Virus record (IMG/VR): IMGVR_UViG_2711768032_000008
Location: 1-38,383 of that record
Length of the DNA: 38,383 nucleotides
Origin: a virus
Lineage: Duplodnaviria > Heunggongvirae > Uroviricota > Caudoviricetes
Direction: 5' to 3' (one strand)
In this document: positions 16,669 to 38,383 of the stretch, in pieces
Layout: every line of letters starts with the position of its first letter
Position numbering within the stretch: the stretch's first letter is position 1
Position numbers and translations under genes: made by a program
The notes under the pieces: model-generated
Told to the model about the DNA's origin: nothing
The model's input: only the letters and a program-made list of their open reading frames with translations
Database searches by the model: none

Positions 16669-16672
16669 AAAT

Positions 16673-18084: not shown

Positions 18085-18087
18085 GCG

Positions 18088-19149: not shown

Positions 19150-19165
19150 CGGGTTTTATGCTCCA

Positions 19166-19999
19166 TCAGCAATTGGTCAGGGTGCCTGCCGGTGCGTCAC
19201 CACCCGGCGCGCGCTGGCGGTAGTCCTGGCGACTGTCTTCACGGCTCAGCTTCTGCTCAAGCTCAGCAAAGGCGGTCTGCTGCTCCTGCAGGGAAGACTC
19301 CAGCGCGGAAAGGCGTTCACCGTTTTCAGCCAGGGATTTATCGGTGCGTTCGCTCAGGTTCTGCTGCTCAGTAGCGACCAGCTCCACGGCCTGATGCACG
19401 TCAGAGAAACGCGCCTCATCGGTCTGCTCTTTTTTGGTGAACAGCGCGGTGACACGGGCAAACAGGGACGGTTTATCGTCGCGGGTTTCTTCCAGTTCGA
19501 TCGCCGTTTCTTCGGCGGCGGTAAACAGGTTTTCAGGGTTCTGCTTGCGGTTCGCCAGTGGGTTGTGCGTGGCACTGGCGCTGAAGGTCAGCATTTCGGT
19601 GCCGAGACTCGCCGGATCGTCAGTCGCCGCCAGCCCCACAAGATAGGCTTTACCGGTGTCGGCAAACTTCGGGCTGACCTCCATGGAGGTAAACAGCTTC
19701 TGGCCTTTCTTCACCAGCGCCACCAGGGAGTCTGTCGGCTCCACATCGGCGTAAATTGCCATCTTGCCCGCCAGCGGACCGTCCTGGATTTCCTCTGCAA
19801 CCAGCGCCGTCACTTTGCCGTAACGGTTGAAGGCACTGTCCGGGGAGTAAGACTTGATGTGCTCCAGGTTGATCAGCGCGGTGTAGACCGTCGGGTTGTA
19901 GCTGGCAGCCATCTGTTCCAGCCATTCACGCTGGATTTCGCGCCCATCGGTGGTGGCACCTTCCACCCCGATACGGAAACGCTTTGCTTTCACTATCAT
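19166..19999 (-). CDS. O: Capsid scaffolding protein O
   Basis: Start at MIVKAKRFRIGVEG (tracked ORF extends to 20065); resembles P2 gpO from memory. Confidence 0.85.
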   Translation of the reverse strand: MIVKAKRFRIGVEGATTDGREIQREWLEQMAASYNPTVYTALINLEHIKSYSPDSAFNRYGKVTALVAEEIQDGPLAGKMAIYADVEPTDSLVALVKKGQKLFTSMEVSPKFADTGKAYLVGLAATDDPASLGTEMLTFSASATHNPLANRKQNPENLFTAAEETAIELEETRDDKPSLFARVTALFTKKEQTDEARFSDVHQAVELVATEQQNLSERTDKSLAENGERLSALESSLQEQQTAFAELEQKLSREDSRQDYRQRAPGGDAPAGTLTNC

Positions 20000-20075
20000 G
20001 AGCCGTGCTCCGTTAAAAATACTTACTGGAGCCTTATGGTTGCGGTGATGGGGGGCGTGAAACAACGCGCGGCGC

Positions 20076-20093
20076 TTGTAGGGTCAGTCACAC
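20076..20093. promoter_or_regulatory. TGT-N12-ACA dyad in divergent O/P promoter region (Ogr-type element)
   Basis: TGTAGGGTCAGTCACACA; centre about 85 bp upstream of the O start codon (minus strand) and about 56 bp upstream of the P start codon. Confidence 0.45.
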
Positions 20094-20140
20094 AATCCGC
20101 CGCCGGGGAAAGCCGCCAGTCAAGGCCGTAGGCTTGTGTC

Positions 20141-21907: not shown

Positions 21908-22920
21908 TGGGTAAGAGTAAGAAAAACCGCACTGCAGTTAAGCACCGCAGCGGCGCATCCGCAGAAGCATTCAGCTTTGGTGATCCGATCCCGGTTCTGG
22001 ACCGCCGTGAGCTGCTTGATTACGTGGAGTGCGTGCAGATGGACCGCTGGTATGAACCGCCAGTAAGTTTTGACGGGCTGGCGCGCACCTACCGTGCGGC
22101 CGTGCATCACAGCTCACCCATTGCCGTTAAACGCAACATTCTGACCAGCACCTTTATTCCGCACCCTCTGCTGAGTCAGCAGGCATTCAGCCGGTTTGTG
22201 CAGGACTATCTGGTATTCGGTAACGCCTATCTGGAGAAGCGCACCAACCGCCTCGGCGGTATTCTGTCGCTGGAGCCATCGCTGGCGAAATATACCCGCC
22301 GTGGTCTGGATCTCGATACCTACTGGTTTGTGCAATACGGTATGACCACACAGCCCTACGAGTTCACCAAAGGCAGTATCTTTCACCTGATGGAGCCGGA
22401 TTTAAACCAGGAGATTTACGGCCTGCCGGAATACTTGTCCGCCATCCCTTCCGCCCTGCTGAATGAGTCTGCCACGCTGTTCCGCCGCAAGTATTACATC
22501 AACGGCAGCCATGCGGGATTCATCATGTATATGACTGACGCCGCACAGAACCAGGAGGACGTGAACAACATCCGGCAGGCAATGAAAAGCGCCAAAGGGC
22601 CGGGCAACTTCCGCAATCTGTTTATGTACTCGCCGAACGGCAAAAAGGACGGGATTCAGATTATCCCGCTGTCAGAAGTCGCGGCAAAGGATGAGTTTCT
22701 GAACATCAAAAACGTGAGTCGGGACGATATGATGGCAGCACATCGCGTTCCGCCACAGATGATGGGGATTATGCCAAGTAACGTTGGTGGGTTTGGGGAT
22801 GTGGAGAAAGCCAGCAAGGTTTTCGTTAGAAATGAACTTATCCCGCTCCAAAAAAGAATATCGGAAGTTAATGAATGGTTAGGTGAAAATGCTATAACTT
22901 TTGTGGAATATCTATTATAG
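21904..22920 (+). CDS. Q: Portal protein Q
   Basis: 338 aa with recalled similarity to P2 gpQ (e.g. PVLDRRELLDYVEC, HHSSPI, YGLPEYLSA, NELIPLQ). Confidence 0.9.
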   Translation: MMGKSKKNRTAVKHRSGASAEAFSFGDPIPVLDRRELLDYVECVQMDRWYEPPVSFDGLARTYRAAVHHSSPIAVKRNILTSTFIPHPLLSQQAFSRFVQDYLVFGNAYLEKRTNRLGGILSLEPSLAKYTRRGLDLDTYWFVQYGMTTQPYEFTKGSIFHLMEPDLNQEIYGLPEYLSAIPSALLNESATLFRRKYYINGSHAGFIMYMTDAAQNQEDVNNIRQAMKSAKGPGNFRNLFMYSPNGKKDGIQIIPLSEVAAKDEFLNIKNVSRDDMMAAHRVPPQMMGIMPSNVGGFGDVEKASKVFVRNELIPLQKRISEVNEWLGENAITFVEYLL

Positions 22921-22930
22921 AAAAATCTTT

Positions 22931-22960
22931 GAGGTGTTCTTCGAACACCTCTCTTTAAAT
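22931..22960 (+). terminator. Hairpin terminator candidate after Q
   Basis: Perfect 9-bp stem GAGGTGTTC / GAACACCTC with 3-nt loop, followed by a weak T-rich stretch. Confidence 0.45.
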
Positions 22961-23252
22961 CAGCCAATCTAATTAAGCTCTTTAACAAAATTGCGTACAC
23001 GCCTTCTATTCATCTCACTTTCATAAGAAATCACTGTGAGCGCCCACTTAACCTTATCATCTATTATACGATATTTCTCATCACCTCCACATATCTCACC
23101 AAATAGAAGACCTCCTTTTATAGCCTTATACAAATCTTCACCGCGGACCGTTTTAATAATACGATAATAATCTTCAACATAGACACTACATAGGTAATCA
23201 ACATCTTCATGACTCCAACTATGGTCGTTATAAACTCGCAGTAGAACTTCAC

Positions 23253-24656
23253 TTAAGGATCCCTGTTGATTTGTTTTTTTACGTGAAAAGCATTATTAAA
23301 TTTATCGACAAGCTCGCCATCTTCTAATGCGCTGAACAATGACCTGTTTTGCACATTGAATAATTCAATCTCATCGCCCCGCCCCTCAATATAGACATCT
23401 ATAATATGCGATGCCTTACTACCTTCTCCAAAGTCTCGAAAAAAACAAACTAGGTTATCTAAGTTGTTAGGTGTTATAGTTTTAAAGTTATCTAAAAAAC
23501 TTTGATATAATGAATTTATAACTTCAGACTGATTGTTATCAAATGAGTCGCGATATAACCCCCAAGCAATAGTGAAGTTATCTCTAGACTTTCCATCTAG
23601 AACTAACTCATTCATCTTTTTGATTTCATCATCTAGCATTAACTTATTATAATACCCATCCTTAACAGCACTAATAAGGATCCTATCCAAGTCAGATGTG
23701 TTGTGATATTTGTATTTATTGATAATTTCCTTCCAAGCTAGTTTCTTTGAGTCATTGTCTTTTTCATTGTTAAATGAACCATAGAACATAAATTCATCTT
23801 TTTCTATAAACTGTATCGGAGGTACTAATTCATCATCATTAAAACAATAATAGCTCCATGAAAAAAGTACAATAGAATGCATAATGGAGTACAAAATACC
23901 ATCATCCATATTCTTAGTATGAAGATACGCCTCATCGATTAAACGTTCTATTTTTTTTAGCACACGGATATTAGTTATTCCGACACTTGAGGTTAAAGAT
24001 CTCAAATCATCATGAAATCTTTTTTTTCCGTCATACGCGATTTGCGCACACTCATAAGGTGTTGGTTTAAACGTAAATTCAATATCAATTACTTTTTCTT
24101 TATAAGTTTCATAGTCCTTAGTTTCACTAGTCCCATCATTTAATAGCAATACCACTTTGCATTTTTTTTGTTCTTTAAGATGTGAAACCAATCCTAATAC
24201 ATCCTTCAACGGCAATCCATCGCCTTTCCTCTCTAAATCATCTATGCATACTATAATATTTTTTAGAGACATAAATGACAATGCTTCTAAGGCTGGTGCA
24301 AAATCTTTCACATAAGGCATGTTTTTCACAAAGTTCATTGCCTTTCTACCAAAACCCTCTGACAGAGCCAATGCATTTTGTTTAAAAGTTTCAATATTTG
24401 GCTCGATACCAATTGAAGATGTTGGAATCGCATTTTCAAATATAGAATACTTTAAGGCATCAAGAGAGTTCACTCCGAATAATGACACGTATGAATATCG
24501 TTCAAATTCTATATTAACTTCCTGCTTCGCTGTTTGTAAAAAATTATTCCAGCCATAGGTCTTTCCTACACCCCACTTACCTTTTATCGCTACTACCGCT
24601 GATTCTTCATTATTAAGAAAATTAAATATTTGCTCGCGAACTATAGCTATTGACAT
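23253..24656 (-). CDS. KAP-family P-loop NTPase (candidate anti-phage cargo)
   Basis: 467 aa; Walker A GKWGVGKT with the Trp typical of KAP NTPases, Walker B-like IVCIDDLERK; strongly AT-rich compared with flanking phage genes; between cos and Q. Confidence 0.75.
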   Translation of the reverse strand: MSIAIVREQIFNFLNNEESAVVAIKGKWGVGKTYGWNNFLQTAKQEVNIEFERYSYVSLFGVNSLDALKYSIFENAIPTSSIGIEPNIETFKQNALALSEGFGRKAMNFVKNMPYVKDFAPALEALSFMSLKNIIVCIDDLERKGDGLPLKDVLGLVSHLKEQKKCKVVLLLNDGTSETKDYETYKEKVIDIEFTFKPTPYECAQIAYDGKKRFHDDLRSLTSSVGITNIRVLKKIERLIDEAYLHTKNMDDGILYSIMHSIVLFSWSYYCFNDDELVPPIQFIEKDEFMFYGSFNNEKDNDSKKLAWKEIINKYKYHNTSDLDRILISAVKDGYYNKLMLDDEIKKMNELVLDGKSRDNFTIAWGLYRDSFDNNQSEVINSLYQSFLDNFKTITPNNLDNLVCFFRDFGEGSKASHIIDVYIEGRGDEIELFNVQNRSLFSALEDGELVDKFNNAFHVKKQINRDP

Positions 24657-24736
24657 GATCTCATCCTTTTATCTAAGCAAGCAACATAAAGAGCCTGATA
24701 TTATCTCATTTTTTAGAAATGATCCCCTCTGCGCGC

Positions 24737-24756
24737 GCTCGTATCCCCGCCACGCC
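24737..24756. other. Candidate cos (cohesive end) site
   Basis: GCTCGTATCCCCGCCACGCC; reverse complement GGCGTGGCGGGGATACGAGC resembles the recalled 186/P2 cohesive ends (GGCGTGGCGGGGAAAGCAT / GGCGAGGCGGGGAAAGCAC). Confidence 0.5.
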
Positions 24757-24938
24757 TGCCCGCTTTATGGAGTGGTTTTCATGCAGGTGCATGATGGGCC
24801 GGAAATCGCGCCAGTTCTGGCGACTCCGACCCGTTGCGATCCTTTTTGGATCATGCGAATCCATGCACCATAGACATGCACCGCTTATTCAAACCGCAGG
24901 ATGCCATATGGGAGGGAGTTTCCCATGGTGCGAAATCA

Positions 24939-25124
24939 CTAATGCGTACTCTCATCCTGCCCTACTCCATATTCATCCAGCCGGGTAACCAGATCGCTCG
25001 TCAGTTCTGACAACCACGAAATCGCCACCTCTTTATCGTCATCGCTACAGTCTGAACTGGCAACCAGCCGGGCCATAAGTTCTATCCGCTGCAGTGCAAG
25101 TGACTCCATGAACAAATCGTTCAC
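24939..25124 (-). CDS. Hypothetical small acidic protein
   Basis: 61-aa ORF between A and cos; no family recognised. Confidence 0.35.
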   Translation of the reverse strand: MNDLFMESLALQRIELMARLVASSDCSDDDKEVAISWLSELTSDLVTRLDEYGVGQDESTH

Positions 25125-25239
25125 AACTCCCTCCCAATATTACTGTTTATATATACAGTACATCATATGCATTTAAAGCTGAAATAATTTTTTACTCAGC
25201 TAACCCTTTGATTAATAGATAGCCTCATTTCAGACCGTC

Positions 25240-27660
25240 TTAGTACCACTGCCGCCATTTGTCATCCTCCTGCAGACGCTGATCCCGGTAGAAAAGGCGT
25301 AGCCCGGCTCCGGATGGGATGCTACCGCCTCGTAAAAGCAGATCCACTTCCGCATCACTTGCATCAAATCCTCTGGAACTCAGTTCTGCCTCGAGCTGCA
25401 GTCGTTGCTGTTCTGAAATGCTCTGTTTGTATGCTTTTTTCCGCTTCGGTTTTACCAGTCTCAACCTAGCGGTGAGTTCCCACCGTTCCTTCTGGCTCAT
25501 GTTGTGCAAGTAATCCTGCAACTCCTTCTCATCCATGGATTTAATATCGGGTAAATCCCCTTCTGCCTGGTTCAAATTTTCAACAGGGGGACAGTTATTG
25601 CCACGAGTCCAAGGGGCGCAAGCGCCCTGGTCGGCTGTCGCCTCCTGAACGTCAACGGCCTTGCGAACCATTTTCCACTTCACCGCGTGCGTGCAAATCT
25701 TGCCCTCTGCAATCGGGGACCAGATGCCATAAATACGGATACCGTGATCGCCGTAGGCGCTCGGCTCGTCGTTAAGCTCGTAGGCCGTTCTGACAAGGTG
25801 ATGTTTGCGGGGAACCAGCACGCCACCCTGTTTCATAATGTAGGTGGCAAAGCAGCCCGCATCAGCAGCAGCCAGTACCGCATCCAGACGCGGGTTATCC
25901 AGTACCGGCGCGCCCGCTTTGCGCTCGCCCTGCACTCTGGCGGCCTGACCAGCCAGCAAACGCAGCTCGCGGTATGCCTGGCGCCCCGGAATACCAAAGA
26001 AGCGAAACTGTTGGACGCGATGCAGTGACGCCCATGCACTAACATGCTCGGCGCTGTCGCGCAGCGATCTGCCGGTTTCTTTGCTGATTTCTTTAGCCAG
26101 TCCGCGCCCGTCAATATTCTTGCTGATGTATTTGGCGATATAGCTGGTCGGCGTGCCCTTACGCGGGTTGATAAGCTCGGATTTGAAGCGCGGCCCCGTG
26201 TTGTTGCCCAGCTCCTCGCGGTCTTCACGAATGGCAAATTTACGCAGCAGCGCGGTAATGGATCGACGGTCTTTTTTGCGCATGAAGCACAGCAGGTGCC
26301 AGTGCACGGTACCGTCATGGTGCGGTTCTGCAACGCGGACGCCATACCAGCGCAGCCCGGCTTTGTGCATTGCCTTGCGGAAAGCGGCGAACGTATCAAC
26401 CAGGTAATCACTGCTCTGGCGGACTGTGGCGCTGGTCCACTTCGGATTTGGTCTGCCGTTGTTAAGGGTTGCGTGGAAGCGTGACGGGCAGGTGATGGTA
26501 TAGAACACAGCGCAGTCTCCGCGCATTTCCGCGATCAGCTCCAGCCCTTTCACACAGGCCATCATTTCATTACGACGGTGCGCCGGGTTGCTGCTGCTGG
26601 CGTTCACCACGTCTTCCATATCCAGCGTGTCGCCGTCTGCATTAACCAGCTCGTGCGACTGGAAAAACTCCAGCGATTTGCGGCGCTGCTCGCGTTTGTG
26701 GATCACGGTTTCATAGCTGACATACGGCGATGCTTTCTTGTTAACCAGGCATACTGCACGCAGTTGTTCCTCCCGCCATTCACAGCGCATCTGCCACAGC
26801 TTGCGATACCACCAGTCTGCGCACAGCATACGTGCAAGCGAAGGTGGGATAAGCTCATAAGGCACGGGTTTACGGCGGCGTTTCTTGCGGCGCAGTTTCT
26901 CAAATGCAGGTGGTATAACTTCAAGTCGCATAGTTTCTGCAGCGACTTTTTCCCATGTCTGCCTGATTTCTTCCAGTTCTACATCATCACTTGCAGACAG
27001 ATCGCCCCAACCCGCATCAAGACACATGCTCATGTGTGCCGCAACCAGCGTGGAAAGACGTTTGACCTGATCCTGATTCATTTCGGGCAGAACCAGCAGC
27101 CCCTCCAGTCCATCATGGCTCGCCATGAACCGGAATGAAGCAGACACCTGACTATCACGCACGCACTCCAGCCGTTCAATACACGGTCTGATAGTTTCGC
27201 GCAGGTAGCGGGAATACGCTTTCGGGCGTCCCAGGCTATGGAAGTATTTAATCCGCTCCAGCAAAGGCTTGCTGATATGGGTGGGCATGGCGCTTACATC
27301 AGCCAGGATAACCAAATCGGGGTTAACGCGTTGCTGCTCGCGGGCCATTTTGGCATGGCTAATCAGCCGATCCTGTTCCATTTCACGCTGGACAGGATCT
27401 CTGGATTCATTGAAGAAATAACGTTCCCAGACCTCATCACTCAACGCCTCACGGCGCAGTTGCTCCTGCTCGTTATCAGTAGCGTAAAGAGTGATCAGGT
27501 TTGAAAGCGCAGACTCCGGCGCAACTTCCGCCGGGTCCAGATACGGATTAACCGCTTTTTTTGGGGTATTCCATGGAAAGGCCACGGCGGCCTCGATCGG
27601 GCCGCTTTTGTCTCTTGCTAATTTTAGCGTCACTGGGAGACTCCAAGGCTCACAAAGCAC
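25240..27660 (-). CDS. A: Replication initiation endonuclease A (gpA-like, rolling-circle Rep)
   Basis: 806 aa; HxH-type motif ([10 protein letters not shown]) and downstream YIAKYISK segment; early-region position. Confidence 0.9.
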
Positions 27661-27877
27661 CTCGGGTGTAGTGCTTACCTTTCAGCTCTGCAATTTCCTG
27701 ACAGGTAACGCAGCACTGCACACCCGGGATGGCTCGGCGGCGAGCTGGCGGGATTGGTGCATCGCAATCAACGCAGAGAACACGGGAAACGCCCGGCACT
27801 TTGGCGCGGGCGTTGTGGATGTGGCGCTGGAGATCTTCTTCCACGCGCTGCTGCACGAGGTCCATTGAATCAGCCAT
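27650..27877 (-). CDS. TraR/DksA-family C4 zinc-finger protein
   Basis: 75 aa with [26 protein letters not shown] four-cysteine motif. Confidence 0.75.
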
Positions 27878-28113
27878 CAGTGCCAGTCCCCCCGAGATTC
27901 CGCTTCACAGCGCGCAGCTTCGCGGCGCAGTAGCTCTGCTGCCTCCACCCCGTTCATTTCCTTCTGCAGAATATGAATCGCCAACGCTTCCATTCGGATT
28001 GAAACGGCTAAAGCACGATCCTTGCGCTCATCCATACGCGCCTCAGTAAGCAACAGATTGAGGCCTGCATCATCTGGTCCTGTTTTGGTGACACGGGTTT
28101 CAATATTTCGCAT
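27877..28113 (-). CDS. Hypothetical early-region protein
   Basis: 78-aa ORF packed between neighbouring minus-strand early genes. Confidence 0.45.
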   Translation of the reverse strand: MRNIETRVTKTGPDDAGLNLLLTEARMDERKDRALAVSIRMEALAIHILQKEMNGVEAAELLRREAARCEAESRGDWH

Positions 28114-28180
28114 AGTTGTTTCTCCTGAATTTGGGCAATAAGAAGCCCGGCGGGTTTACGCCATTAATTTCTGTTGTGGA

Positions 28181-28522
28181 TTAATTCGGCATGGTTAGCC
28201 GTTTGGGAAATAAGCTCACCACTGCACGAAAATGATTCATTGCTTTAATCAGCTCCCGCGTTTCGTCAGTGGTCAGCTCATTAATTTTGACGCTGTGACG
28301 TTCTGCCGGAATTTTTGCCATATAAAATATGGCTGCCAGTGCCCTCTCATTCTGTTTATTGTTAACGTCCCTTGGGTCACGCATATCCTCAATAAATCTT
28401 TCAAGCTCCGACTCAATATTCAGGCCAAACACTTTTGCTCGTAATTCCGCAATATGGTTCAGTCCGTCCAGGCGTTTACCGGGGCTTAATGGAACAGTCG
28501 CCGCAGCGCCTTCGATAGCCAT
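28181..28522 (-). CDS. Hypothetical early-region protein
   Basis: 113-aa ORF in the 186-like early operon downstream of cII. Confidence 0.5.
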   Translation of the reverse strand: MAIEGAAATVPLSPGKRLDGLNHIAELRAKVFGLNIESELERFIEDMRDPRDVNNKQNERALAAIFYMAKIPAERHSVKINELTTDETRELIKAMNHFRAVVSLFPKRLTMPN

Positions 28523-28692
28523 GTGTTCCCCTTTTTGGTTGTAGACAGTTCAGCCAGCAGCGCATCCTGAGAGCGGCACGGATGCCAGCGCTTGCCATCC
28601 TTCCCCATAATCCAACCATGACCGCAGTGCATTGCAGGACTTGGCTTAACGAGAAGCGATGCAAAAGAAGGTTCTTTAGTCAGCATAACCAC
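28486..28692 (-). CDS. Hypothetical small early protein
   Basis: 68-aa ORF with Cys/His residues, immediately downstream of cII-like gene. Confidence 0.4.
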   Translation of the reverse strand: MVMLTKEPSFASLLVKPSPAMHCGHGWIMGKDGKRWHPCRSQDALLAELSTTKKGNTWLSKALRRLFH

Positions 28693-28693
28693 C

Positions 28694-29203
28694 TCAGATC
28701 AGCCCGAACGAAGCGCCGAGGCCCGTCACGGTATCCACCGCGCTTGCCATCGCCGGATTAACCTGCAAACGCGCATGCAATGAAACTGCAGTGAGTGCCA
28801 TCAAGCGCGTAACAGAGTTGATGCTGTTGATAACATCGCGGCGGCCTGCACTGGTTTTTACATCACCGGATACTGCGCCTGCAGCTACTCGCCCAATCTC
28901 CGCAGTTGCGCTCATGACGTAATGCGGCAGGTTCTCTTTTGCCACTTCATTCAATGGCACACACGGCAGGCAATGGATTTGAGCCAGAAAACCGTCAACC
29001 AGCGTTGAGTCCTCTGTGATATCAGTCAGCAGCCAGATCTCCGGCGGAGTGAGTTGATGTGGTTGGTCTGGGTTCAGTTTGTTGCGCAGAGTCTGGACGT
29101 TCATTCCTGCACGTTCCGCCAGCTTCGCCATGTTGTGACGCAGCGCGAAAGTCCGACAGGAGTCATCAAAGTGCGGATGTTTGGAAATCTTATAATCAAA
29201 CAT
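28694..29203 (-). CDS. 186 CII-like regulatory protein
   Basis: 169 aa; position after apl/cox and recalled similarity to the phage 186 CII family. Confidence 0.65.
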   Translation of the reverse strand: MFDYKISKHPHFDDSCRTFALRHNMAKLAERAGMNVQTLRNKLNPDQPHQLTPPEIWLLTDITEDSTLVDGFLAQIHCLPCVPLNEVAKENLPHYVMSATAEIGRVAAGAVSGDVKTSAGRRDVINSINSVTRLMALTAVSLHARLQVNPAMASAVDTVTGLGASFGLI

Positions 29204-29235
29204 GTAAGCCCCTTAGAAAGTTCTCATAATTGAAC

Positions 29236-29478
29236 TTACTGGCCAACAATGACGCGGAAGTTGGAATGACCGAGGGATTCACGAACCTGGTCGGTTTTGT
29301 ACATCAGATAACGAAGGCTTACGCGACCTTTGTTTTTTTCCTTCTTGACCATGTATTTAGCAAGCTGACCATGGTGGATCTTTTGGTAAACAGAACCACG
29401 GGAAATACCTTCCCACTCCGCGAACTCTGCGGGCGTAGCCATCTCTTTTGGTACACGAATTGAAATATCAGTACTCAT
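29236..29478 (-). CDS. Apl/Cox-like excisionase/repressor (HTH)
   Basis: 80 aa, divergent from cI; HTH-like segment ISRGSVYQKIHHGQL. Confidence 0.6.
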   Translation of the reverse strand: MSTDISIRVPKEMATPAEFAEWEGISRGSVYQKIHHGQLAKYMVKKEKNKGRVSLRYLMYKTDQVRESLGHSNFRVIVGQ

Positions 29479-29597
29479 AGTGCAGTATCTCTCGATTAAG
29501 GTTTGGTTTACGTCGTTTTATCTTATTTTATTTGATTCAATAATTGATACATCGAGATACTACGATCCAATATTTGATACGTCAACAGGATTGAAAA
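29479..29597. promoter_or_regulatory. Lysis-lysogeny switch region with repeated TTGATAC motifs
   Basis: AT-rich divergent intergenic region between apl/cox and cI; TTGATAC at 29544-29550 and 29574-29580, TTGATTC at 29532-29538. Confidence 0.5.
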
Positions 29598-30230
29598 ATG
29601 ATACACGTGAAAGCGGGCGAGAATACCGGGGGAAGAGAGGCTATCCATAGGCTAATGGCTGCCTACGATTTCAAGTCCAGACAGCAACTGTGCGATCACC
29701 TGGGCGCATCAAAAAGCACTATGGCAAACAGATACTTAAGAGATAGTTTTCCGGCGGAATGGGTGATTCAGTGCGCTCTGGAGACAGGTGTTTCTTTACT
29801 CTGGCTAACAACCGGTCAGGGCGAGCCAAGTTCAAATATTGATTCGAAAAAAAATATCAATTTCGTGAACTCTGGCAAAGTCAAACCCCTTTCTGAGCTT
29901 GTTTCCCCCGAAATTGATAAGGCAACTCTCAACGGTGGCTTATTGGTCGATGCTGGAAAAGCAATCATTGATAGCAGCCTGCTCCCCTCAGACTCAAGCA
30001 ACCTATTGCTGGTGAATACTTCTGGAGATTCTTATTTAGTGGACCGCAGCCAAACACCTCCAGTTAACGGTATGTGGTTGGTAGATATCGACGGAATAAA
30101 AAGCATCGTGAAGTTAACACGGCTACCAGGAAACAGATTGGTGGTCCATCAAGACGAATCATCCTTTGAGTGCAGCCTTGATGATATCGAGGTAGTAGGC
30201 CGCGCTTTAAAAATAATTAAGAGCCTTTGA
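29598..30230 (+). CDS. cI: CI-type immunity repressor (186-like)
   Basis: 210 aa with N-terminal HTH; immediately upstream of int in the same orientation. Confidence 0.75.
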   Translation: MIHVKAGENTGGREAIHRLMAAYDFKSRQQLCDHLGASKSTMANRYLRDSFPAEWVIQCALETGVSLLWLTTGQGEPSSNIDSKKNINFVNSGKVKPLSELVSPEIDKATLNGGLLVDAGKAIIDSSLLPSDSSNLLLVNTSGDSYLVDRSQTPPVNGMWLVDIDGIKSIVKLTRLPGNRLVVHQDESSFECSLDDIEVVGRALKIIKSL

Positions 30231-30231
30231 T

Positions 30232-31251
30232 ATGACCATCAGAAAGCAGCCAAACGGAAAATGGTTGTGTGAATGCTACCCGAACGGGCGCGACGGCAAG
30301 CGTGTGCGCAAACAATTTTCGACAAAAGGCGAGGCCATAGCATTCGAAAACTTCACCATGGATGAAGTGAACAAAAAACCATGGCTAGGGGAAAAGGAAG
30401 ATCGGCGGAATCTGTCAGAAGTGATAGAGCAATGGCACTCACTCTACGGACAAACGCTTGCAGACCCCAAACGCCTGATGGCGAAACTCAACATTATTTG
30501 TAATGGTCTTGGCGATCCCATCGCCTCAGAGTTAACCGCCGGTGATTTTACGAAATACCGCGAAGCGCGGTTAAAAGGTGAAGTGCGAAATGAAGAGGGC
30601 GCACTTATGTCGCCGGTTAAGCCCCGCACGGTAAACCTTGAACAACGCAACCTATCATCGGTTTTTGGCACACTGAAAAAGCTGGGCCACTGGTCAGCGC
30701 CCAATCCGCTCGCCGGATTGCCAACATTTAAAATCGCTGAGGGCGAACTGGCATTCCTGGCCCCGGAAGAAATTAAACGCCTGCTGGATGCCTGCGCTGA
30801 TTCTCAAAGCCCCAGCCTGCTGATGATTGCAAAAATATGCCTGGCCACCGGCGCACGCTGGAGTGAAGCCGAAAACCTGCAGGGCCATCAGTTATCGAAA
30901 TACCGGATCACCTACACAAAGACCAAAGGCAAGAAAAACCGAACCGTGCCAATATCTCAGAAACTGCACGATGAACTCCCCAAAAACAGAGGGAAGCTAT
31001 TCACCCCATGCAGAAAAGCCTTTGAGCGTGCAGTGAAGCGAGCTGGTATCGACCTGCCAGAAGGTCAATGTACTCATGTGCTTCGGCATACATTCGCCAG
31101 TCACTTTATGATGAACGGCGGAAACATACTGGTACTGCGCGATATTCTTGGTCACTCTGATATTAAAATGACAATGGTCTATGCACACTTCGCTCCAGAC
31201 CATTTAGAAGATGCAGTGACGAAAAACCCACTTGCTATGTTGGAAGTTTAA
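30232..31251 (+). CDS. int: Tyrosine integrase (P2/186-type)
   Basis: 339 aa; C-terminal catalytic region with HVLRHTFASH and LGHSDIKMTMVYAH (Tyr). Confidence 0.9.
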   Translation: MTIRKQPNGKWLCECYPNGRDGKRVRKQFSTKGEAIAFENFTMDEVNKKPWLGEKEDRRNLSEVIEQWHSLYGQTLADPKRLMAKLNIICNGLGDPIASELTAGDFTKYREARLKGEVRNEEGALMSPVKPRTVNLEQRNLSSVFGTLKKLGHWSAPNPLAGLPTFKIAEGELAFLAPEEIKRLLDACADSQSPSLLMIAKICLATGARWSEAENLQGHQLSKYRITYTKTKGKKNRTVPISQKLHDELPKNRGKLFTPCRKAFERAVKRAGIDLPEGQCTHVLRHTFASHFMMNGGNILVLRDILGHSDIKMTMVYAHFAPDHLEDAVTKNPLAMLEV

Positions 31252-31252
31252 T

Positions 31253-31783
31253 ATGGACAAAAGCTTAGTAGCTCTTTTTTACTTTTCGTTTTTATTTTTA
31301 AGTTTTTTTGTTTTTATTAAGTATCGACTTTACGAACTCGATCATAGAAGCTTATTCCAGCAACCTCTTTTTTGGGCTGCAATTGCACTCCCCTTACTCA
31401 CTTGTTTTTTCTTAGGCTCATTAGTTTGGATAGATAAAATCCACTCCTTCAGTCTTACAAGTCATGGTTACGAAAGATTTCTTGAAATATCTAAATTGCC
31501 ATTACTGGTTCTAGCTTCATCTGTTCCCCTAGTTTCAATAGTTAATAACCTTCACAGAACGAAACAAACAGAAAAACAAATTTCAGAGGCCGAACAAAAA
31601 AACAGAGTAGATCTATATTATAACCATATGAAATTCAACTTAGATTTGTATAAAAAAATTGAAACAAAAAAAAATTATCAGCTACTACCCTGTAGTGGAT
31701 GCCCACAAAGAAGCTATATATCAGCATTATATCAAACATCCACAAGAGCTTTACAGGAAAGCATACCCTCAATCTACCCCTGA
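31253..31783 (+). CDS. Membrane-anchored hypothetical protein, N-terminal part (frameshifted cargo gene)
   Basis: AT-rich; two or three N-terminal transmembrane helices; frame ends 110 bp after an A9 tract (31666-31674). Confidence 0.5.
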   Translation: MDKSLVALFYFSFLFLSFFVFIKYRLYELDHRSLFQQPLFWAAIALPLLTCFFLGSLVWIDKIHSFSLTSHGYERFLEISKLPLLVLASSVPLVSIVNNLHRTKQTEKQISEAEQKNRVDLYYNHMKFNLDLYKKIETKKNYQLLPCSGCPQRSYISALYQTSTRALQESIPSIYP

Positions 31784-32285
31784 TAATTCACAACAATTGA
31801 AAATCAATGATAACTTTGTTATAGAACTACATAAGTGCTGGATTGAAATTAATGCCAGACTTAAACAATTATCAGAAAGCGAAACTCAACTAGATCCAAC
31901 TCAAGAATTTTGTACTTCAAAGATGAGAATTTTCTTTGGAATAATGAGTATTTATGTAAAGACTTGCAAGCATCTTTGCTTGGGTGGATTTCATGACCAA
32001 AAGTCATTCATTTTGAATGATAATTATGATAAGTATCAAATTTATTCACCGTTCTATGACTTTGGTACAATGTACCAATCTCTGCAATCTCTAGAAGAGA
32101 TCACATTCGCTTTCTTAGATACCTGCAGAAATGAAGAGGTTAATTTATATTTCCCATTGGACGACAAAATTCTGATTTATGGTGAAGGGATTCTACAAAA
32201 TTGGTATGGATACTCTCGATTCTTGATTTCTACCGCCTATCAGCCCGCAAAGATGGTGCGTTTACAACCGCTGATGCGTGAATGA
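31659..32285 (+). CDS. Hypothetical protein, C-terminal part of the same frameshifted cargo gene
   Basis: 208-aa ORF in the +1 frame beginning inside the A9 tract (TTG start in the ORF track); removing one A fuses it to the upstream ORF. Confidence 0.45.
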   Translation: MKQKKIISYYPVVDAHKEAIYQHYIKHPQELYRKAYPQSTPDNSQQLKINDNFVIELHKCWIEINARLKQLSESETQLDPTQEFCTSKMRIFFGIMSIYVKTCKHLCLGGFHDQKSFILNDNYDKYQIYSPFYDFGTMYQSLQSLEEITFAFLDTCRNEEVNLYFPLDDKILIYGEGILQNWYGYSRFLISTAYQPAKMVRLQPLMRE

Positions 32286-32401
32286 AGATGGCGGCATTTT
32301 GGCGGCAGAGCATTAAAAACGAGTAAAACGGACAAATATGGAATAACACTAACATACTGTTTTTAAACACAACTAACTGTTTTCATTATAGTAAAAATGG
32401 T

Positions 32402-32446
32402 ATGTAGGAATTTCGGACGCGGGTTCAACTCCCGCCAGCTCCACCA
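32402..32446 (+). repeat. attR core: displaced copy of the ssrA 3' end (45 bp)
   Basis: Identical to 1016-1060; no tmRNA 5' portion upstream. Confidence 0.85.
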
Positions 32447-32611
32447 CTTTTTAGTTGTTTGAAGTTCAATGAAGTCTACTAAGCCCACACAGCACAAGCT
32501 CTGCGGGCTTTTTTACGTCTATTGTCGTCCAGTGAGAATTGCTGAGAACTACGAGTTATGGCACCCTGAATGGGACCCACTAAGAAGGGTCCAAAAACCG
32601 AGGGTCCCAAA

Positions 32612-33841
32612 ATGGCAAAAATCGCTAAGAAGCTCACTGACACTGAAATCAAAAGCACCAAGCCAGCCGATAAAGAAATCAACTTGTTTGACGGTGATGG
32701 TCTGATTCTACGAATCGCTCCTTTGGCGAAAGGAGGCAAGAAAAATTGGTATTTCAGGTATGCAGTACCAGTGAGCAAGAAAAGAACCAAAATGAGCCTT
32801 GGGACATATCCTCACCTTACCCTTGCAAGAGCCAGAGCCTTACGTGATGAATATCTCTCCTTTCTGGCAAATGGTGTTGATCCCCAAATCCATAACAACG
32901 ATAAGGCGAAGGCATTAAAGAGTGCTACTGAGCACACTCTCCAAGCCGTAGCGCGGAAATGGTTAGATGAGAAGGTAAAGACATCAGGTATCTCACAAGA
33001 CCATGCAGCAGACATCTGGCGCAGCTTAGAGAGAAATGTCTTTCCCGGTCTGGGTAATGTCCCTATCAATGAGATCCGACCTAAGCTCTTAAAACAACAC
33101 CTTGATCCTATTGAGCAACGAGGCGTATTGGAAACTCTACGCCGTATCATTTCACGTCTGAATGAAATCTTCCGGTGGGCAGCTACTGAAGAACTTATTG
33201 AGTTCAACCCGGCTGACAACCTTGGTCAAAGATTCAGTAAACCAAAAAAGCAAAATATGCCTGCCCTTCCCCCAAGCGAATTGCCAAGGTTTATGGAATC
33301 TTTGACGAATGCGTCAATCCGGTTGGAAACACGTATGCTAATTGAATGGCAATTGTTGACATGGGTTCGTCCGGGTGAAGCCGTTCGCGCAAGGTGGTCT
33401 GATATTGATACAACCAACAGCATTTGGAACATTCCTGCTGATTTCATGAAAATGAAAAAGCTTCACAAAGTTCCTTTGAGTAAAGAAGCTTTGCGCATCC
33501 TTGAATTAATGAAATCAATAAGTGGGCATAGAGAATGGGTTTTCCCCAGCATAAAAGCGCCTCTTAATCATATGCATGAACAAACAGCCAACGCAGCTAT
33601 CATCCGAATGGGGTTCGGAGGCGAGCTTGTAGCTCACGGTATGCGTTCTATTGCACGAACAGCGGCAGAGGAGTCTGGTAAATTCAGAGCTGAAGTTCTT
33701 GAGGCAGCGCTTGCCCACTCGAAAAAAGATGAAATTATCGCAGCATACAATCGTGCAGAATATCTGATAGAGCGACAGAGTTTGATGCAATGGTGGAGTG
33801 ATTACGTTCAAGCTCAAAGATCAAATGCTCTGGTAGCCTAA
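32612..33841 (+). CDS. Tyrosine integrase, P4/CP4-57 (IntA)-like
   Basis: Start chosen at MAKIAKKLTDTEIKSTKP (tracked ORF from 32570); N-terminal LTDTEIK...DGDGL motif and C-terminal HGMRSIARTAA...AYNRAEY catalytic region. Confidence 0.85.
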   Translation: MAKIAKKLTDTEIKSTKPADKEINLFDGDGLILRIAPLAKGGKKNWYFRYAVPVSKKRTKMSLGTYPHLTLARARALRDEYLSFLANGVDPQIHNNDKAKALKSATEHTLQAVARKWLDEKVKTSGISQDHAADIWRSLERNVFPGLGNVPINEIRPKLLKQHLDPIEQRGVLETLRRIISRLNEIFRWAATEELIEFNPADNLGQRFSKPKKQNMPALPPSELPRFMESLTNASIRLETRMLIEWQLLTWVRPGEAVRARWSDIDTTNSIWNIPADFMKMKKLHKVPLSKEALRILELMKSISGHREWVFPSIKAPLNHMHEQTANAAIIRMGFGGELVAHGMRSIARTAAEESGKFRAEVLEAALAHSKKDEIIAAYNRAEYLIERQSLMQWWSDYVQAQRSNALVA

Positions 33842-33879: not shown

Positions 33880-34296
33880 ATGGAAACCCTATTCAAAGTT
33901 TTTGAAAAATTTAGTTCCAGACCACTTTTTTTTATTTTTTTCGGACTCTCACTTTGTGAATTTTTTCAGAAACAATCTGTTCTGATGAATCCATCAGCAG
34001 ATAACATCGCGAAATTATTCGCAGCCATGATATTAGTTGTTTTTTTTACTTGGGGATTTGAATGGCTAATCTTCAAGTTCAATGTAAACCTTGAACCTCA
34101 TGATCAAGGCGATATTGGACCAACAATTGGAACGGCTACTTTAGCTGTATACTTAGTTTATGCCTTTCACTTTCTCAGTGAAAATCCTGAAGCATTAAAT
34201 TTAAAGTTATTAACTAACTCTGGCTTTATATACAGCACAACTCTATTATTATTCTCATTAGAATGCATGAAGCTTAGAAGACTTAAACAAAAATAA
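33880..34296 (+). CDS. Small hypothetical membrane protein (about 4 TM segments)
   Basis: 138 aa, AT-rich, hydrophobic stretches (LFFIFFGLSL, FAAMILVVFFTWGFEWLIF, TATLAVYLVYAFHFL, FIYSTTLLLFSL). Confidence 0.5.
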   Translation: METLFKVFEKFSSRPLFFIFFGLSLCEFFQKQSVLMNPSADNIAKLFAAMILVVFFTWGFEWLIFKFNVNLEPHDQGDIGPTIGTATLAVYLVYAFHFLSENPEALNLKLLTNSGFIYSTTLLLFSLECMKLRRLKQK

Positions 34297-34367
34297 ACAA
34301 CATCATTGTGATGATAAATATAAAATAGGCATGGCGAAAAAAAATCACCACGCCTAAAATATAATAA

Positions 34368-36134
34368 TTATGGTAGCATCATTGATACATAATCCACACC
34401 AATCCTTGAGCTATACTGAGACGCTATAGCCTGATATCTTTCTGCATAACCAGTTCTCAGTTGAGATTTAAGTTTGAGTCGGACAGGAACATTTTGCACG
34501 TTGCCATCCATATTACTTAAAAACACGGCAGAAATAATATTTTTTTCTTCGCCATCAACTGTTGTTCCATGATTCAACACCACCATATAATCAACAACAG
34601 GAAGCGTTTTATCCCCTTCGAAAATAGAGAGATATTTTCTTTGATTTTTATGCATTACATATATATATTTCGAATGTTCAGCAAATGGCAATGCTTTACT
34701 CTGACTGGCGTTAAAAAGCTCCAGAACTTTAATGAGCCTGTGCGGACTTAATCTTACATGGTGAGGGTCGTTACCCTGAGTAGGAACCAAATCACATGCC
34801 GCAGATACACATAAATACCATTTGTTCGACTCTGTATCAAAGAAAATAGTGCCAGTAGAAATATGACCATCTTCAAAATTCTTTGAAGACAAATTCATAT
34901 TTAAAGCATGATACATTTCGTGATAAGTATCATTATTTGATGGCAGATCCATTTTTGAAGAGCAATATTGGAGCAATGCAGCAACTCCGCTGTTAGCGTA
35001 TTCATTTGAATAGCTATCAAAAACACTTTTGATAAATTCATCCAGCGTATTATTATTTTTAAGTCTTTGATAAAGCTCTTCTGATAAATTACCAAATACA
35101 AAGTCAATATTTCTACATCTAATATCAGGCGAGTCTGATTTTAATATCTCATTTAACCACGCAGCTTGACCGTAATGATCGTTAGCCAAATGATTTACAA
35201 AAGATAAAGCCTCAGCTTCGATTGCATTCTGAATTTCAGATTTTATTAACTGATAATAAGATGGTTTCCATTCAATGAGAGAATCATTGAGAGTTTGCCA
35301 AATCCTATCTCCATCGTTTTCATGATCATCTTGAACCTTATGAAATAGGGAGACAAAGATATTACCACATTGAATCCATTTTACTCCGCTTTCATCACCC
35401 CGAATGACATTGCCAGATGTGTTGCTAGAAATAATTGCATTTCTAGACACAGCATATTCTGCAATCATTTTTGCAATGAAGTTTTTATCCTTTTGATCCT
35501 CCAACACAGCATCATCATGTATTAATCTTTTAATTCTTCTACAAGGCTTACTGTCTTTAATATAGGCTATTGTTTCATCTCTTGTGAGAGCTTTATTACC
35601 ATTATCATTTAAGTTCGGTAATACAACGTCTTCCCAATAACTTTGGACATCTTCATTATCGTAGTCAATGATCAAGCTGTTGATATCCAGAGCACCTTTG
35701 AGAGTCGATGATATCTGCATCCAAACCGTTTCTAAATTCTCTCTAGTATATATTACAATCATATTTAAATGATCGGAGTCTTTCAAATCTTGTAATAGTT
35801 TAAGTGTTTTATCAGGTGCATTATTATCAAGATGATAATCTACAATAATAAGATCTGATTTCCTAATCCGATCCACATCGAAATTAACAGAACCATTGTC
35901 AACATCACAAATCATATTTTTAGATTGAAAAAAGCTCTCAAGAGTAGCGGCTCGTTTAGATGAGTCAATTTTGTTGTAGTCTAAATCAACTTCGTTATTC
36001 AACGCCCTGATTGATTCAGAATACGTCAGAAAATCGTCATCAATCATGACAACGGAACGAATTGCATTTTCGCAGAAAGTTTTCTGGACAAGAGAATTAT
36101 AATTTGCCACTGTCATATTAGAACTCCACTCCAT
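34368..36134 (-). CDS. Receiver (REC)-like domain protein with large uncharacterised C-terminal domain
   Basis: 588 aa; N-terminal VVMIDDD ... DLIIVDYHL ... NMIVIYT resembles a response-regulator receiver fold; the remaining ~450 aa match nothing I recognise; AT-rich; 17-bp overlap with the upstream kinase-like gene. Confidence 0.6.
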   Translation of the reverse strand: MEWSSNMTVANYNSLVQKTFCENAIRSVVMIDDDFLTYSESIRALNNEVDLDYNKIDSSKRAATLESFFQSKNMICDVDNGSVNFDVDRIRKSDLIIVDYHLDNNAPDKTLKLLQDLKDSDHLNMIVIYTRENLETVWMQISSTLKGALDINSLIIDYDNEDVQSYWEDVVLPNLNDNGNKALTRDETIAYIKDSKPCRRIKRLIHDDAVLEDQKDKNFIAKMIAEYAVSRNAIISSNTSGNVIRGDESGVKWIQCGNIFVSLFHKVQDDHENDGDRIWQTLNDSLIEWKPSYYQLIKSEIQNAIEAEALSFVNHLANDHYGQAAWLNEILKSDSPDIRCRNIDFVFGNLSEELYQRLKNNNTLDEFIKSVFDSYSNEYANSGVAALLQYCSSKMDLPSNNDTYHEMYHALNMNLSSKNFEDGHISTGTIFFDTESNKWYLCVSAACDLVPTQGNDPHHVRLSPHRLIKVLELFNASQSKALPFAEHSKYIYVMHKNQRKYLSIFEGDKTLPVVDYMVVLNHGTTVDGEEKNIISAVFLSNMDGNVQNVPVRLKLKSQLRTGYAERYQAIASQYSSRIGVDYVSMMLP

Positions 36135-37836
36135 TGAACTGGATCACAAAATTAGCGCCATCTTTTATTAAATAGTTATCGCCTTCATCAGGTTCTGAAT
36201 ACCATATTTTATGATGTGCAACAGCAAGGTTTTCTCGACATAGATACAGACCTACCCCATGTCCATTTGCTCTTTTGCTATAAAATAGTTCAAATAGTCG
36301 CGGGATATCATCGGTATCAATTGCCGGACCAGAATTTGCTATGATAACCAAAGAATTCACAAAACCAATCTTTATGAGCCTATTATTTGACAGACTGACC
36401 CAATACATTGCATTGTTGATAATATTAGTAAAAACAGGATAGATCCTTGATGGTATATCTGTTATTGCGATTTGCTTAAACTCTTCACTAAATTCAATAG
36501 TTATTCGTTGCCGTTCGAAACGCTCCCCAAAGAACTTCAGGACATAATCCATGATATTTTTTCCAGTTATTCTCTGCCTGGATTGATAACCTGATATTTT
36601 CAAAGGTGATAAGAAACGTATTTGTTGAGTAAGCGATCTGTGAGCATTTAACGCCAATGAAAAACCAGGGTGTTCTTTTACAGAAGTAGGAAGAGAGTTT
36701 AGTCCTCTGGTTACCATAGAATCCATTTCTTCAAGTTCATGAGATGTTATCTCAACACTAATACCTAACTGTGCAAGCGCGTTTAAACTTTTAGCTTTTT
36801 CTTCAAAATATGAGCGTTCTTCTTCAGATAATGAGAATGCTGAATCTAAGTTTATACCTTCAAATAATCTATCGAGACCTTTTATTATTGATTGATATTT
36901 GAAAGTTAGGGTATCAACTGACTCAACATATAAACTATCGAGCAAATTAAACACATTTTCAATTTGTGAATCATTATCTATTGAATCAACAACTGATATA
37001 GTTTTAGCATAATAATCACTTCGATCAACCTTTATTTCATCGGCCCATTTTTTTAAAAGAGAATGTATCTTCTCCTCTATCGTGTTATTAAACTTAGTTA
37101 GTTTAGAATTAATAATACCTTGATTTTTTTCAAGGTGATTTTTCGCTGCCAATGAAGGCTCAAGTTTATTTAATTCAGAATCAAGTTTATTAATTGCTAA
37201 CTTCATTTGTAGAATATACGCAGAGAACTCATTAAATTTATCTCTGTAGTCTCTATATTTCTCTTCATACATTCCAAGTTTTGGAGGTTTGATAGGCGTT
37301 TTAATTTCACTGCGCAACGCATCTAAGTTTGTAAGATCACTGTCTATAATTTTAAGATAGTTTAAATCTAACGAACCATCAGTTTTATCAAGCTTAGTTT
37401 TCAGCCTTTTAACAGCCTCCAAGGAAGCATCAAGAACTGGTGTCTGATTCTTCAAAGCTTCTGAAAAACTTTTTTGTGTTGATTTTCGAGCTTGTTGTTG
37501 AGCAGATTTTCTTAACTCTTTTTCACGCTTAACTTGTTCTAAAAGCTCTTTACGGTCATCAGAACGTGAACCAAAAAATCTATCAGCAAGTTCAGTTAAC
37601 AAATTAGATATAATAGTTTTCAGTTCTCTTGCAGCCTGGTATCTTATGAATCCCTCTCTCCCCGACTTATCTTTCAGCTCTTTATTACTGGATTGAGTAA
37701 TTCCAATATAACCAAAAATCCTTCTATTAGACCAATAATATCGCCCTGCATTCCATGAACGTCTTTCTTCTATCTGGAAGAAATCATTATCTACTCGACC
37801 ATAAGGTAATACTCTCAAGCTATCCCTAAAAATCAT
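36118..37836 (-). CDS. Histidine-kinase-like protein (H-box + HATPase_c), 5'-truncated by IS3
   Basis: C-terminal TSHELEEM (H-box-like), N-box NIINNAMYW, G1 IANSGPAID, G2 GHGVGL; long coiled-coil-rich N-terminal region; frame stays open upstream of the first Met to the IS3 junction (in-frame stop only at 37963-37965, inside the IS). Confidence 0.6.
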   Translation of the reverse strand: MIFRDSLRVLPYGRVDNDFFQIEERRSWNAGRYYWSNRRIFGYIGITQSSNKELKDKSGREGFIRYQAARELKTIISNLLTELADRFFGSRSDDRKELLEQVKREKELRKSAQQQARKSTQKSFSEALKNQTPVLDASLEAVKRLKTKLDKTDGSLDLNYLKIIDSDLTNLDALRSEIKTPIKPPKLGMYEEKYRDYRDKFNEFSAYILQMKLAINKLDSELNKLEPSLAAKNHLEKNQGIINSKLTKFNNTIEEKIHSLLKKWADEIKVDRSDYYAKTISVVDSIDNDSQIENVFNLLDSLYVESVDTLTFKYQSIIKGLDRLFEGINLDSAFSLSEEERSYFEEKAKSLNALAQLGISVEITSHELEEMDSMVTRGLNSLPTSVKEHPGFSLALNAHRSLTQQIRFLSPLKISGYQSRQRITGKNIMDYVLKFFGERFERQRITIEFSEEFKQIAITDIPSRIYPVFTNIINNAMYWVSLSNNRLIKIGFVNSLVIIANSGPAIDTDDIPRLFELFYSKRANGHGVGLYLCRENLAVAHHKIWYSEPDEGDNYLIKDGANFVIQFNGVEF

Positions 37837-37957
37837 TAGTCCTGCATACTTTTTGGCCTTAAGATCAAAGTGGGAATGTTCACGTTCAGTATGTGATGTA
37901 TTTTGTGAAAGGAATTCAAACGTTCCTATCTGAAGCTCAAATGGGCCGACCCCTGCG

Positions 37958-38383
37958 TGATCCTACCCACGTAATATGGACACAGGCCTAAGCGAGGTTC
38001 TTGTTTTCAAATTGTTCCGGACTGAGGCCGCCACACCAACTGTGCCGCCGCCACCGATTGTAATCACATTCGATATAATTAAACACCGTTGCCCGCATTA
38101 TTTCCCGGCTGATAAAGTGTTCTCCATGGATACATTCCACTTTCAGCGAATGAAAGAAGCTTTCCACGCAGGCATTATCGTAGCAGCAACCTTTTGCGCT
38201 CATACTTCCACGCAGATTATGCCGCTTCAGTTGCGCCTGATAATCTGCTGAACAGTACTGGCCTCCACGGTCCGTGTGAACGATAACGTTCCGGGGCCTC
38301 TTACGCCGCCACAGCGCCATCTGCAGGGCATCGCAGGCCAGTTGCGCCGTCATGCGTGGCGACATTGACCAGCCAATAACGGC
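37958..38383 (-). mobile_element. IS3-family insertion sequence, right end (partial, runs off window)
   Basis: Terminal inverted repeat TGATCCTACCCACGTAATATGGACACAGGCCTAAG starting at 37958; contains the 3' part of a transposase gene. Confidence 0.8.
37988..38383 (-). CDS. IS3-family transposase OrfB, C-terminal fragment (5' end outside window)
   Basis: Translation ...[10 protein letters not shown]...[23 protein letters not shown]... is a DDE transposase C-terminus. Confidence 0.85.

Follow-up and report, generated by a model that had tools for sequence, protein, structure and literature searches.

A histidine kinase-like and receiver gene pair beside an ssrA-integrated prophage, probably the decayed remnant of a methylase-linked three-gene module

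Described systems closest to the gene pair

The protein families HEF_HK (PF19191) and Response_reg_2 (PF19192) were defined as a two-component-like pair with 91.6% gene linkage over 644 regions, in a data set that included members from Escherichia coli (Bellieny-Rabelo, Pretorius & Moleleki 2021, Genome Biol Evol; PMC8011034). The majority of the kinases in that study ("group 1"; 174 of 222) combine the domains HATPase_c_3, HEF_HK and HATPase_c, HATPase_c_3 is missing from a further 34 of the 222 ("group 2"), descent of the kinases from paraMORC ATPases was proposed, and genes for C5 DNA methylases, Vsr and type II restriction-modification (R-M) systems were enriched near the pair (PMC8011034). 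Here, a gene pair is considered that lies near one end of a 38,383-nt stretch of DNA (IMG/VR virus record IMGVR_UViG_2711768032_000008, positions 1 to 38,383; the whole stretch is referred to as the window) and encodes, on the minus strand, a histidine kinase (HK)-like protein and, directly downstream, a receiver protein with a long C-terminal domain. A sequence-only reading had proposed the pair as a candidate undescribed signalling or defence system, possibly a distinct family. This proposal does not hold because both characteristic domains are in Pfam and were published in 2021 with E. coli members; the family is already known, and the locus in the window is not a new system. GenBank entry AJ304858.2 already describes it as a "remnant integrative element" and names a "histidin kinase-like protein" in it, and the RefSeq product names are "ATP-binding protein" and "response regulator receiver domain". 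Quite probably, the two genes are what is left, at the 3′ end, of a three-gene mobile module which has decayed in the window and which, where intact, would be linked to DNA methylation and gated by a phosphorelay.

The likeness to the HEF_HK/Response_reg_2 pair comprises the receiver family, the type of H-box, a HATPase_c domain at the C-terminus, the gene order and the tight adjacency of the two genes; moreover, orthologues of the window genes share the association with C5 methylases and Vsr. The copy in the window differs in that it has neither the N-terminal HATPase_c_3 domain (which group 2 lacks as well) nor a methylase neighbour, which is attributed to a deletion (see below). A comparable logic is found in Detocs (DtcA/DtcB/DtcC), in which the His as well as the Asp is needed for defence (Rousset et al. 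2023, bioRxiv 10.1101/2023.01.24.525353): a soluble sensor kinase hands phosphate to a receiver domain fused to an effector that does not bind DNA. However, the Detocs sensor consists of TPR repeats, whereas the family considered here carries a paraMORC GHKL ATPase; Detocs has a standalone "buffer" receiver gene, whereas no such open reading frame (ORF) lies between or beside the window genes; its effector is a PNP ATP nucleosidase, whereas the C-terminal domain here is without Pfam match; and, unlike in Detocs, a C5 DNA methylase belongs to the intact unit. Identity with Detocs was ruled out, since the searches yielded neither a PADLOC Detocs match nor a standalone receiver gene or PNP effector, so that the earlier distinction of the pair from Detocs stands. 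The third group of relatives are the paraMORC/MORC GHKL ATPases of R-M operons (Iyer, Abhiman & Aravind 2008, PMC2292703). Intact orthologues of the window kinase share with them an HATPase_c_3 module with intact ATP-binding motifs, as well as the linkage of this module to cytosine methylases and Vsr. In contrast to the paraMORC proteins, the ATPase here forms one polypeptide with a histidine kinase core and has a receiver protein as partner, and it has been lost in the window copy.

The kinase remnant, the receiver protein and their intact relatives

The upstream ORF, which RefSeq calls as 572 aa from an internal ATG at 37836, contains a HATPase_c domain (residues 462-553; E 1.7e-11). Its match to HEF_HK (E 1.2e-4; 22.9 bits) lies just under the cutoff of 24.1, while an intact orthologue with 88% identity scores 28.4; the low score coincides with an I-to-T change, private to the window lineage, beside the phospho-accepting His. 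The profile searches that had been suggested recovered the HATPase_c and receiver domains. NCBIfam yielded weak partial matches only, to many sensor kinases. The kinase homologues show no variation in the His of the SHELEEM H-box with the adjoining Glu (H785-E786) or in the N, G1 and G2 boxes. Among solved structures, the kinase ThkA of Thermotoga (3A0T; E 4.7e-11) is the best match, and the NNA, NSGP and GxGxGL boxes are aligned with it. The replacement of Asp by Asn in the G1 box (ANSGPAI) was considered as a mark of a dead ATP site and rejected, because the functional ThkA shares NSGP. The canonical features of a phosphorelay protein are present, i.e., a phospho-accepting His in a dimerization and histidine phosphotransfer (DHp) helix together with N, G1 and G2 boxes, and the cytoplasmic HK-like core noticed from the letters alone is borne out; autophosphorylation and phosphotransfer themselves are predicted from these features.

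The receiver gene encodes 588 aa if translation starts at 36134 and 582 aa from a conserved ATG at 36116, which is located one base past the kinase stop codon (TAA-T-ATG). The two ORFs are thus adjacent and co-directional, as had been noticed, but the overlap that had also been noticed, which amounts to 17 nt, depends on the chosen start. Response_reg_2 (PF19192) matches residues 25-181 (E 3.7e-31; 109.1 bits versus a cutoff of 27), and D32/D33 (VVMIDDD), D99 (IIVDYHL), T130 (IVIYT) and K266 do not vary among 41 aligned homologues with identities down to 23%. The acidic pair, the phospho-accepting Asp, the Thr and the Lys required of a receiver fold are therefore all present, which substantiates the receiver-like domain originally assigned from the three motifs. 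In an AlphaFold2 (AF2) model (mean predicted local distance difference test score, pLDDT, 84.4), the N-terminal Response_reg_2 receiver fold carries a large helical insertion and is followed first by a helical bundle (~293-416) and then by a C-terminal subdomain rich in beta structure (~417-575); a separate model of the C-terminal domain (pLDDT 85.2) has the same order of helical bundle and beta-rich subdomain. A receiver protein 100% identical to that of the window is also encoded on a contig of 7.5 kb (DYWT01000267.1) that is listed in a metagenome-assembled genome (MAG) of Sporosarcina psychrophila; this contig almost certainly belongs to E. coli and was mis-binned.

The C-terminal ~300 aa, in which no motif had been recognised, matched no Pfam family and, by PDB sequence search, no solved structure; a Foldseek search with this domain, i.e., the structural comparison that had been suggested, retrieved nothing. 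Neither a DNA-binding nor any other known output domain was found in the receiver protein by Pfam, PDB-sequence and fold searches, again in line with what had been read from the sequence. A profile of residues 290-588 retrieved 618 cluster representatives among 1.84 billion, of which the best 150 all had the same receiver plus C-terminal layout or were fragments; no other architecture occurred among these 150. The beta-rich subdomain weakly resembles the MazF/CcdB barrel. Membership of the MazF/CcdB superfamily was rejected, since identity was 5-13%, Foldseek gave no match, the hhalign probability was <1% and the PemK and CcdB Pfam models were unmatched. As judged by eye, no conserved basic residue is found in the receiver protein family at the position of the catalytic Arg of MazF. 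The MazF/Kid/CcdB toxin-like fold is consequently treated as a lead only, and not as membership.

Upstream of ATG 37836, the kinase frame remains open as far as 37957, the first base after the end of an IS3 insertion sequence (IS). The remnant aligns gap-free, with 88% identity, to residues 380-991 of the 991-aa kinase of an intact orthologous locus (L002). It keeps the conserved RVLPYGR...DKSGREG block, the helical middle, the HEF_HK DHp region (ITSHELEEM) and the HATPase_c catalytic domain, and it lacks the first 379 codons, together with the HATPase_c_3 GHKL ATPase of the N-terminus. In L002, genes for a C5 DNA methylase (PF00145; E 3.3e-61), the kinase and the receiver protein follow each other in this order with overlaps or 1-nt spacing, and the kinase (L002 5034-8009) contains HATPase_c_3 (28-139), HEF_HK (775-833; 28.4 bits) and HATPase_c (881-984). 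The L002 module is 87-89% identical to the window copy and lies beside smpB at the same ssrA/integrase site, with an integrase 89% identical to that of the window. From the gene order, the integrase and the smpB neighbour it follows that L002 holds the same island, at an identical site, in intact form. Intact modules are also present in Pantoea, in integrative and conjugative elements (ICEs) of Salmonella and Acidobacteria, and in Tn7 cargo of Acinetobacter. As reconstructed from these loci, the intact unit is a tightly packed set of C5 methylase, ~990-aa kinase of the paraMORC-type GHKL/HEF_HK/HATPase_c architecture and ~582-aa receiver protein. The impression of a complete two-gene system has to be given up accordingly: the intact unit has three genes and a kinase longer by ~380 residues, and the kinase gene in the window is a 5′-truncated fragment.

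No C5 methylase gene adjoins the pair in the window; there, IS3 abuts the kinase remnant, its right end adjoining the truncation point and extending beyond the window edge. For E. coli W, RefSeq annotates "IS3-like element IS3 family transposase" at this junction, where IS3 has no target-site duplication and its far side abuts a truncated alpha-amylase-like pseudogene. This arrangement is as expected after IS-mediated deletion; the kinase remnant starts exactly at the IS3 end. Judging from the junction, an IS3-associated deletion took the methylase gene and the first 379 kinase codons, including the GHKL ATPase. Strains without IS3 were compared with regard to the question whether IS3 brought about the deletion or arrived afterwards. 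In IS3-free E. coli such as 2011C-4251 (L012 3960-4040, compared with E. coli W, L001 10700-12040), the amylase-like pseudogene is joined straight to the kinase remnant, and the loss of IS3 extends by 23 bp into the pseudogene side and by 1 bp into the side of the remnant; these strains are therefore derived from the IS3 form.

To survey the family, one genome per species was scanned, resulting in 31 usable loci. An HK-like gene was directly upstream of the receiver gene in every one of them, a C5 methylase gene was adjacent in 28 (mostly upstream and co-directional, sometimes convergent downstream), and Vsr was present in 11. Any other conserved real gene was found in 0 of the 31 loci; besides Vsr, the search across them for a fourth conserved gene, e.g., for a nuclease, brought up only clusters of antisense shadow ORFs. 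In some loci, an HTH_3 controller-like gene stands beside the methylase gene. The neighbourhood check that had been proposed also placed the homologues in ssrA islands, ICEs and Tn7 elements. The GHKL motifs of the intact kinases are invariant, along with H785-E786, the N, G1 and G2 boxes, and the D-D-D-T-K set of the receiver. Of the three loci without methylase gene, L043 has a Vsr gene upstream and its contig stops right after the receiver gene, and L042 has a gene for an 841-aa protein upstream instead. In the third, from a Gemmatimonadetes MAG (L033; 2905-4206 and 4327-7011), the kinase gene is immediately preceded by a DDE_5 transposase gene and encodes a protein without the first ~75 residues, and a KAP NTPase is encoded alongside; by this layout, the module has decayed in L033 independently and for a second time, again in association with an IS. 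In both decays, the methylase and the kinase N-terminus were lost together and the receiver gene was left whole. The N-terminal GHKL part of the L002 kinase (residues 13-136) matches the PADLOC "REase_II" profile PDLC03419 (E 1.6e-9), and does so by the ATPase fold only; therefore, this ATPase module also occurs in some proteins classed as type II restriction enzymes.

Proposed function of the intact module

Gene content and domain architecture suggest that the module, where intact, probably serves as a conflict system that is linked to methylation and gated by a phosphorelay, either R-M-like or abortive. In such a system, the methylase would mark the host genome, and the paraMORC-type ATPase end of the kinase would read a DNA-associated signal, e.g., unmethylated incoming DNA. 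The kinase core would then autophosphorylate the invariant His and hand the phosphate to the invariant receiver Asp, by which the C-terminal domain would be switched on as a toxic or restricting effector. The presence of Vsr in a third of the loci fits active genomic C5 methylation, and the co-loss of methylase and sensor in the two decays (n = 2) would fit an effector that is harmless without activated kinase. A recognisable restriction endonuclease domain was found in neither protein. Assignment of the intact relatives to an immune or addiction class, with a MORC-like ATPase-kinase, cytosine methylation as the self reference and a receiver-fused effector of new fold, is more tentative; it is consistent with the three-gene linkage, the carriage on mobile elements and the two decays that lost methylase and sensor. 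The effector of these relatives is possibly a distant MazF/CcdB-like toxin.

Less supported than this mechanism is the suggestion made in 2021 (PMC8011034) that the intact pair is a regulatory two-component system controlling neighbouring R-M genes. It would account for the non-random association with R-M genes and for the HTH_3 controller-like gene beside the methylase gene in some loci. Nevertheless, it appears unlikely, given that Pfam, PDB-sequence and fold searches found no DNA-binding output domain, that most loci hold only methylase and Vsr as conserved partners and, hence, no separate nuclease to be regulated, and that the pair is translationally coupled to the methylase gene.

Also less supported, and decidedly unlikely as the principal role, is that of an addiction device, in which loss of the element would dilute methylation, the kinase would sense this dilution and the receiver-effector would kill the cell. 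The invariable location on mobile elements (ssrA islands, ICEs and Tn7), a methylase that could serve as "antidote", the weakly toxin-like fold, and the simultaneous loss of methylase and kinase N-terminus in both decays would all agree with such a device; however, the present data do not separate addiction from defence, and classical type II R-M systems do both.

Decay in E. coli and surroundings of the remnant

The truncated form was found in 560-574 of 5426 complete E. coli genomes (~10%), with 99.7-100% identity, and an intact copy of the module in none of the 5426. Compared with intact L002, the ratio of nonsynonymous to synonymous rates (dN/dS, omega) amounts to 0.048 in the kinase part and to 0.082 in the receiver gene. 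Within E. coli, omega is ~0.96, based on 14 distinct substitutions (11 nonsynonymous and 3 synonymous) in the window and six other copies picked among the more divergent ones; under the old constraint, the probability of at least 11 nonsynonymous changes out of 14 would be 4e-7 to 2e-5. One of the substitutions in the kinase remnant is a nonsense change (W519*). Furthermore, RefSeq flags the receiver gene as "frameshifted" in AH25 and the kinase remnant as containing an "internal stop" in GPEC1366, and IS1, IS3 or ISVsa5 is inserted inside the two genes in other strains. In the lineage of the window, the kinase remnant has acquired three private nonsynonymous changes, one of them the I-to-T exchange beside the phospho-His, and promoter-like sites are not commoner than in shuffled sequence. 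Plasmid and phage collections contained almost no copies, the two "phage" matches being chromosomal flanks inside prophage records. From this pattern of substitutions and disruptions, the window copy is most likely without function, i.e., a neutrally decaying, pseudogene-like remnant.

Also less supported than a decayed three-gene module is the view that the truncated kinase core (DHp and catalytic domains, expressed from ATG 37836 or by read-out from IS3) and the receiver protein have been domesticated as a working two-gene unit in E. coli. Despite the fact that the motifs of both kinase domains are kept and that the remnant is frequent, with both ORFs open in most of the genomes, this view is very unlikely: omega is close to one, nonsense, frameshift and IS insertion events have hit the genes in other strains, the window allele carries its private changes including the one next to the phospho-His, and its promoter-like sites do not exceed the shuffled background. 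The high frequency of the remnant possibly reflects clonal descent, because the copies are 99.7-100% identical. Next to no credence can be given to an intact, undescribed two-gene signalling or defence system of a new family, for even though the two reading frames are open and contain HK and receiver motifs, and no PADLOC model exists for them, the pair belongs to Pfam families published in 2021, its kinase is cut at residue 380 of 991, the methylase partner seen in 28 of 31 loci elsewhere is missing in the window, and the pair behaves neutrally within E. coli.

Several points weigh against interpreting the pair as the dead part of a methylation-linked conflict module. The window and most of the ~560 genomes still have open frames for both remnants, so that the kinase core and the receiver may retain activity, and the neutrality estimate comprises 14 substitutions in seven sequences chosen among the more divergent. 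As to the conflict role, sequence searches revealed neither a nuclease nor another toxin domain in the two proteins, no PADLOC v2 model matches either of them (only noise at E<=1), and neither an experimental test nor a later name of the PF19191/PF19192 system was found in the literature.

The pair resides in AT-rich DNA (33-35% GC, compared with 50-60% across most of the window) next to a P4-type integrase gene (Table 1), as had been noticed. The start of this integrase in RefSeq is 42 nt further in. A hairpin beginning 12 nt past the receiver gene stop codon is likely the end of the operon, as far as a consensus scan can tell. Between integrase and receiver gene, the window contains an ORF for a hydrophobic 138-aa protein (33880..34296, plus strand; RefSeq WP_000448925.1), which is missing from the intact L002 island, where only 118 bp separate the two genes.

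Table 1. Features of the gene pair and its surroundings in the window
Feature	Position	Strand	Basis or remark
Receiver-effector gene	34368..36116 (from conserved ATG) or 34368..36134	minus	ORF; Pfam PF19192
HK-like gene remnant, 5′-truncated	36118..37957 (ORF from ATG: 36118..37836)	minus	frame open to IS3 end
IS3 right end: inverted repeat ...GGGTAGGATCA and orfB 3′ part (37988..38365)	37958..38383	minus	junction sequence
Terminator-like hairpin, 12-bp stem then T-run	34326..34356	minus	consensus scan only
P4-type tyrosine integrase	32570..33841	plus	Pfam Arm-DNA-bind_3, Phage_int_M, Phage_integrase
ssrA 3′-end copy, 45 nt (att site)	32402..32446	plus	exact direct repeat of 1016-1060
tmRNA gene (ssrA)	698-1060
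P2/Fels-2-like prophage, complete-looking, integrated in ssrA	1061..32401		bounded by exact 45-nt ssrA 3′-end repeats
Integrase of the prophage itself	30232..31251

Most of the window is a prophage, whose part from 1061 to 25000 has ~89% identity over 77% to the Salmonella phages SEN8 and Fels-2. Since this prophage occupies the interval between the two ssrA repeats, the island with the gene pair is an older ssrA island displaced from ssrA by the later prophage; the distal repeat would accordingly be the boundary between the two elements. In an AT-rich cargo spot of the prophage (33-40% GC), a 467-aa KAP-family P-loop NTPase (23253..24656, minus strand) has a match (E 9.6e-27) in PDC-S49, a candidate defence family of PADLOC. 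A membrane acyltransferase (Acyl_transf_3, E 8e-13; 8489..9556, plus strand), encoded in a 35% GC insert beside a tail-fibre assembly gene, resembles O-antigen-modifying prophage cargo. The gene for a DUF6216 protein (E 7.6e-13; 13818..14624, plus strand), on the opposite strand within the tail/baseplate region and with GC dipping to 44%, may be a moron. Finally, the overlapping ORFs 31232..31783 and 31659..32285 (plus strand), between the prophage integrase gene and attR, match phrog_17460 consecutively (1-140 and 137-340 of 343 residues) and represent a single frameshifted cargo gene.

The gene pair is most likely a dead remnant of a described family and, therefore, should be counted neither as a new system nor as an active E. 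coli two-component system. The interest lies in the intact relatives rather than in the copy of the window. They are made testable by the three-gene core, by an intact copy that a close relative carries at this ssrA site, and by a C-terminal domain confined to one architecture. If the proposed model is true, the family would be the second defensive use of two-component signalling, after Detocs, and would provide a role for bacterial MORC-like ATPases.

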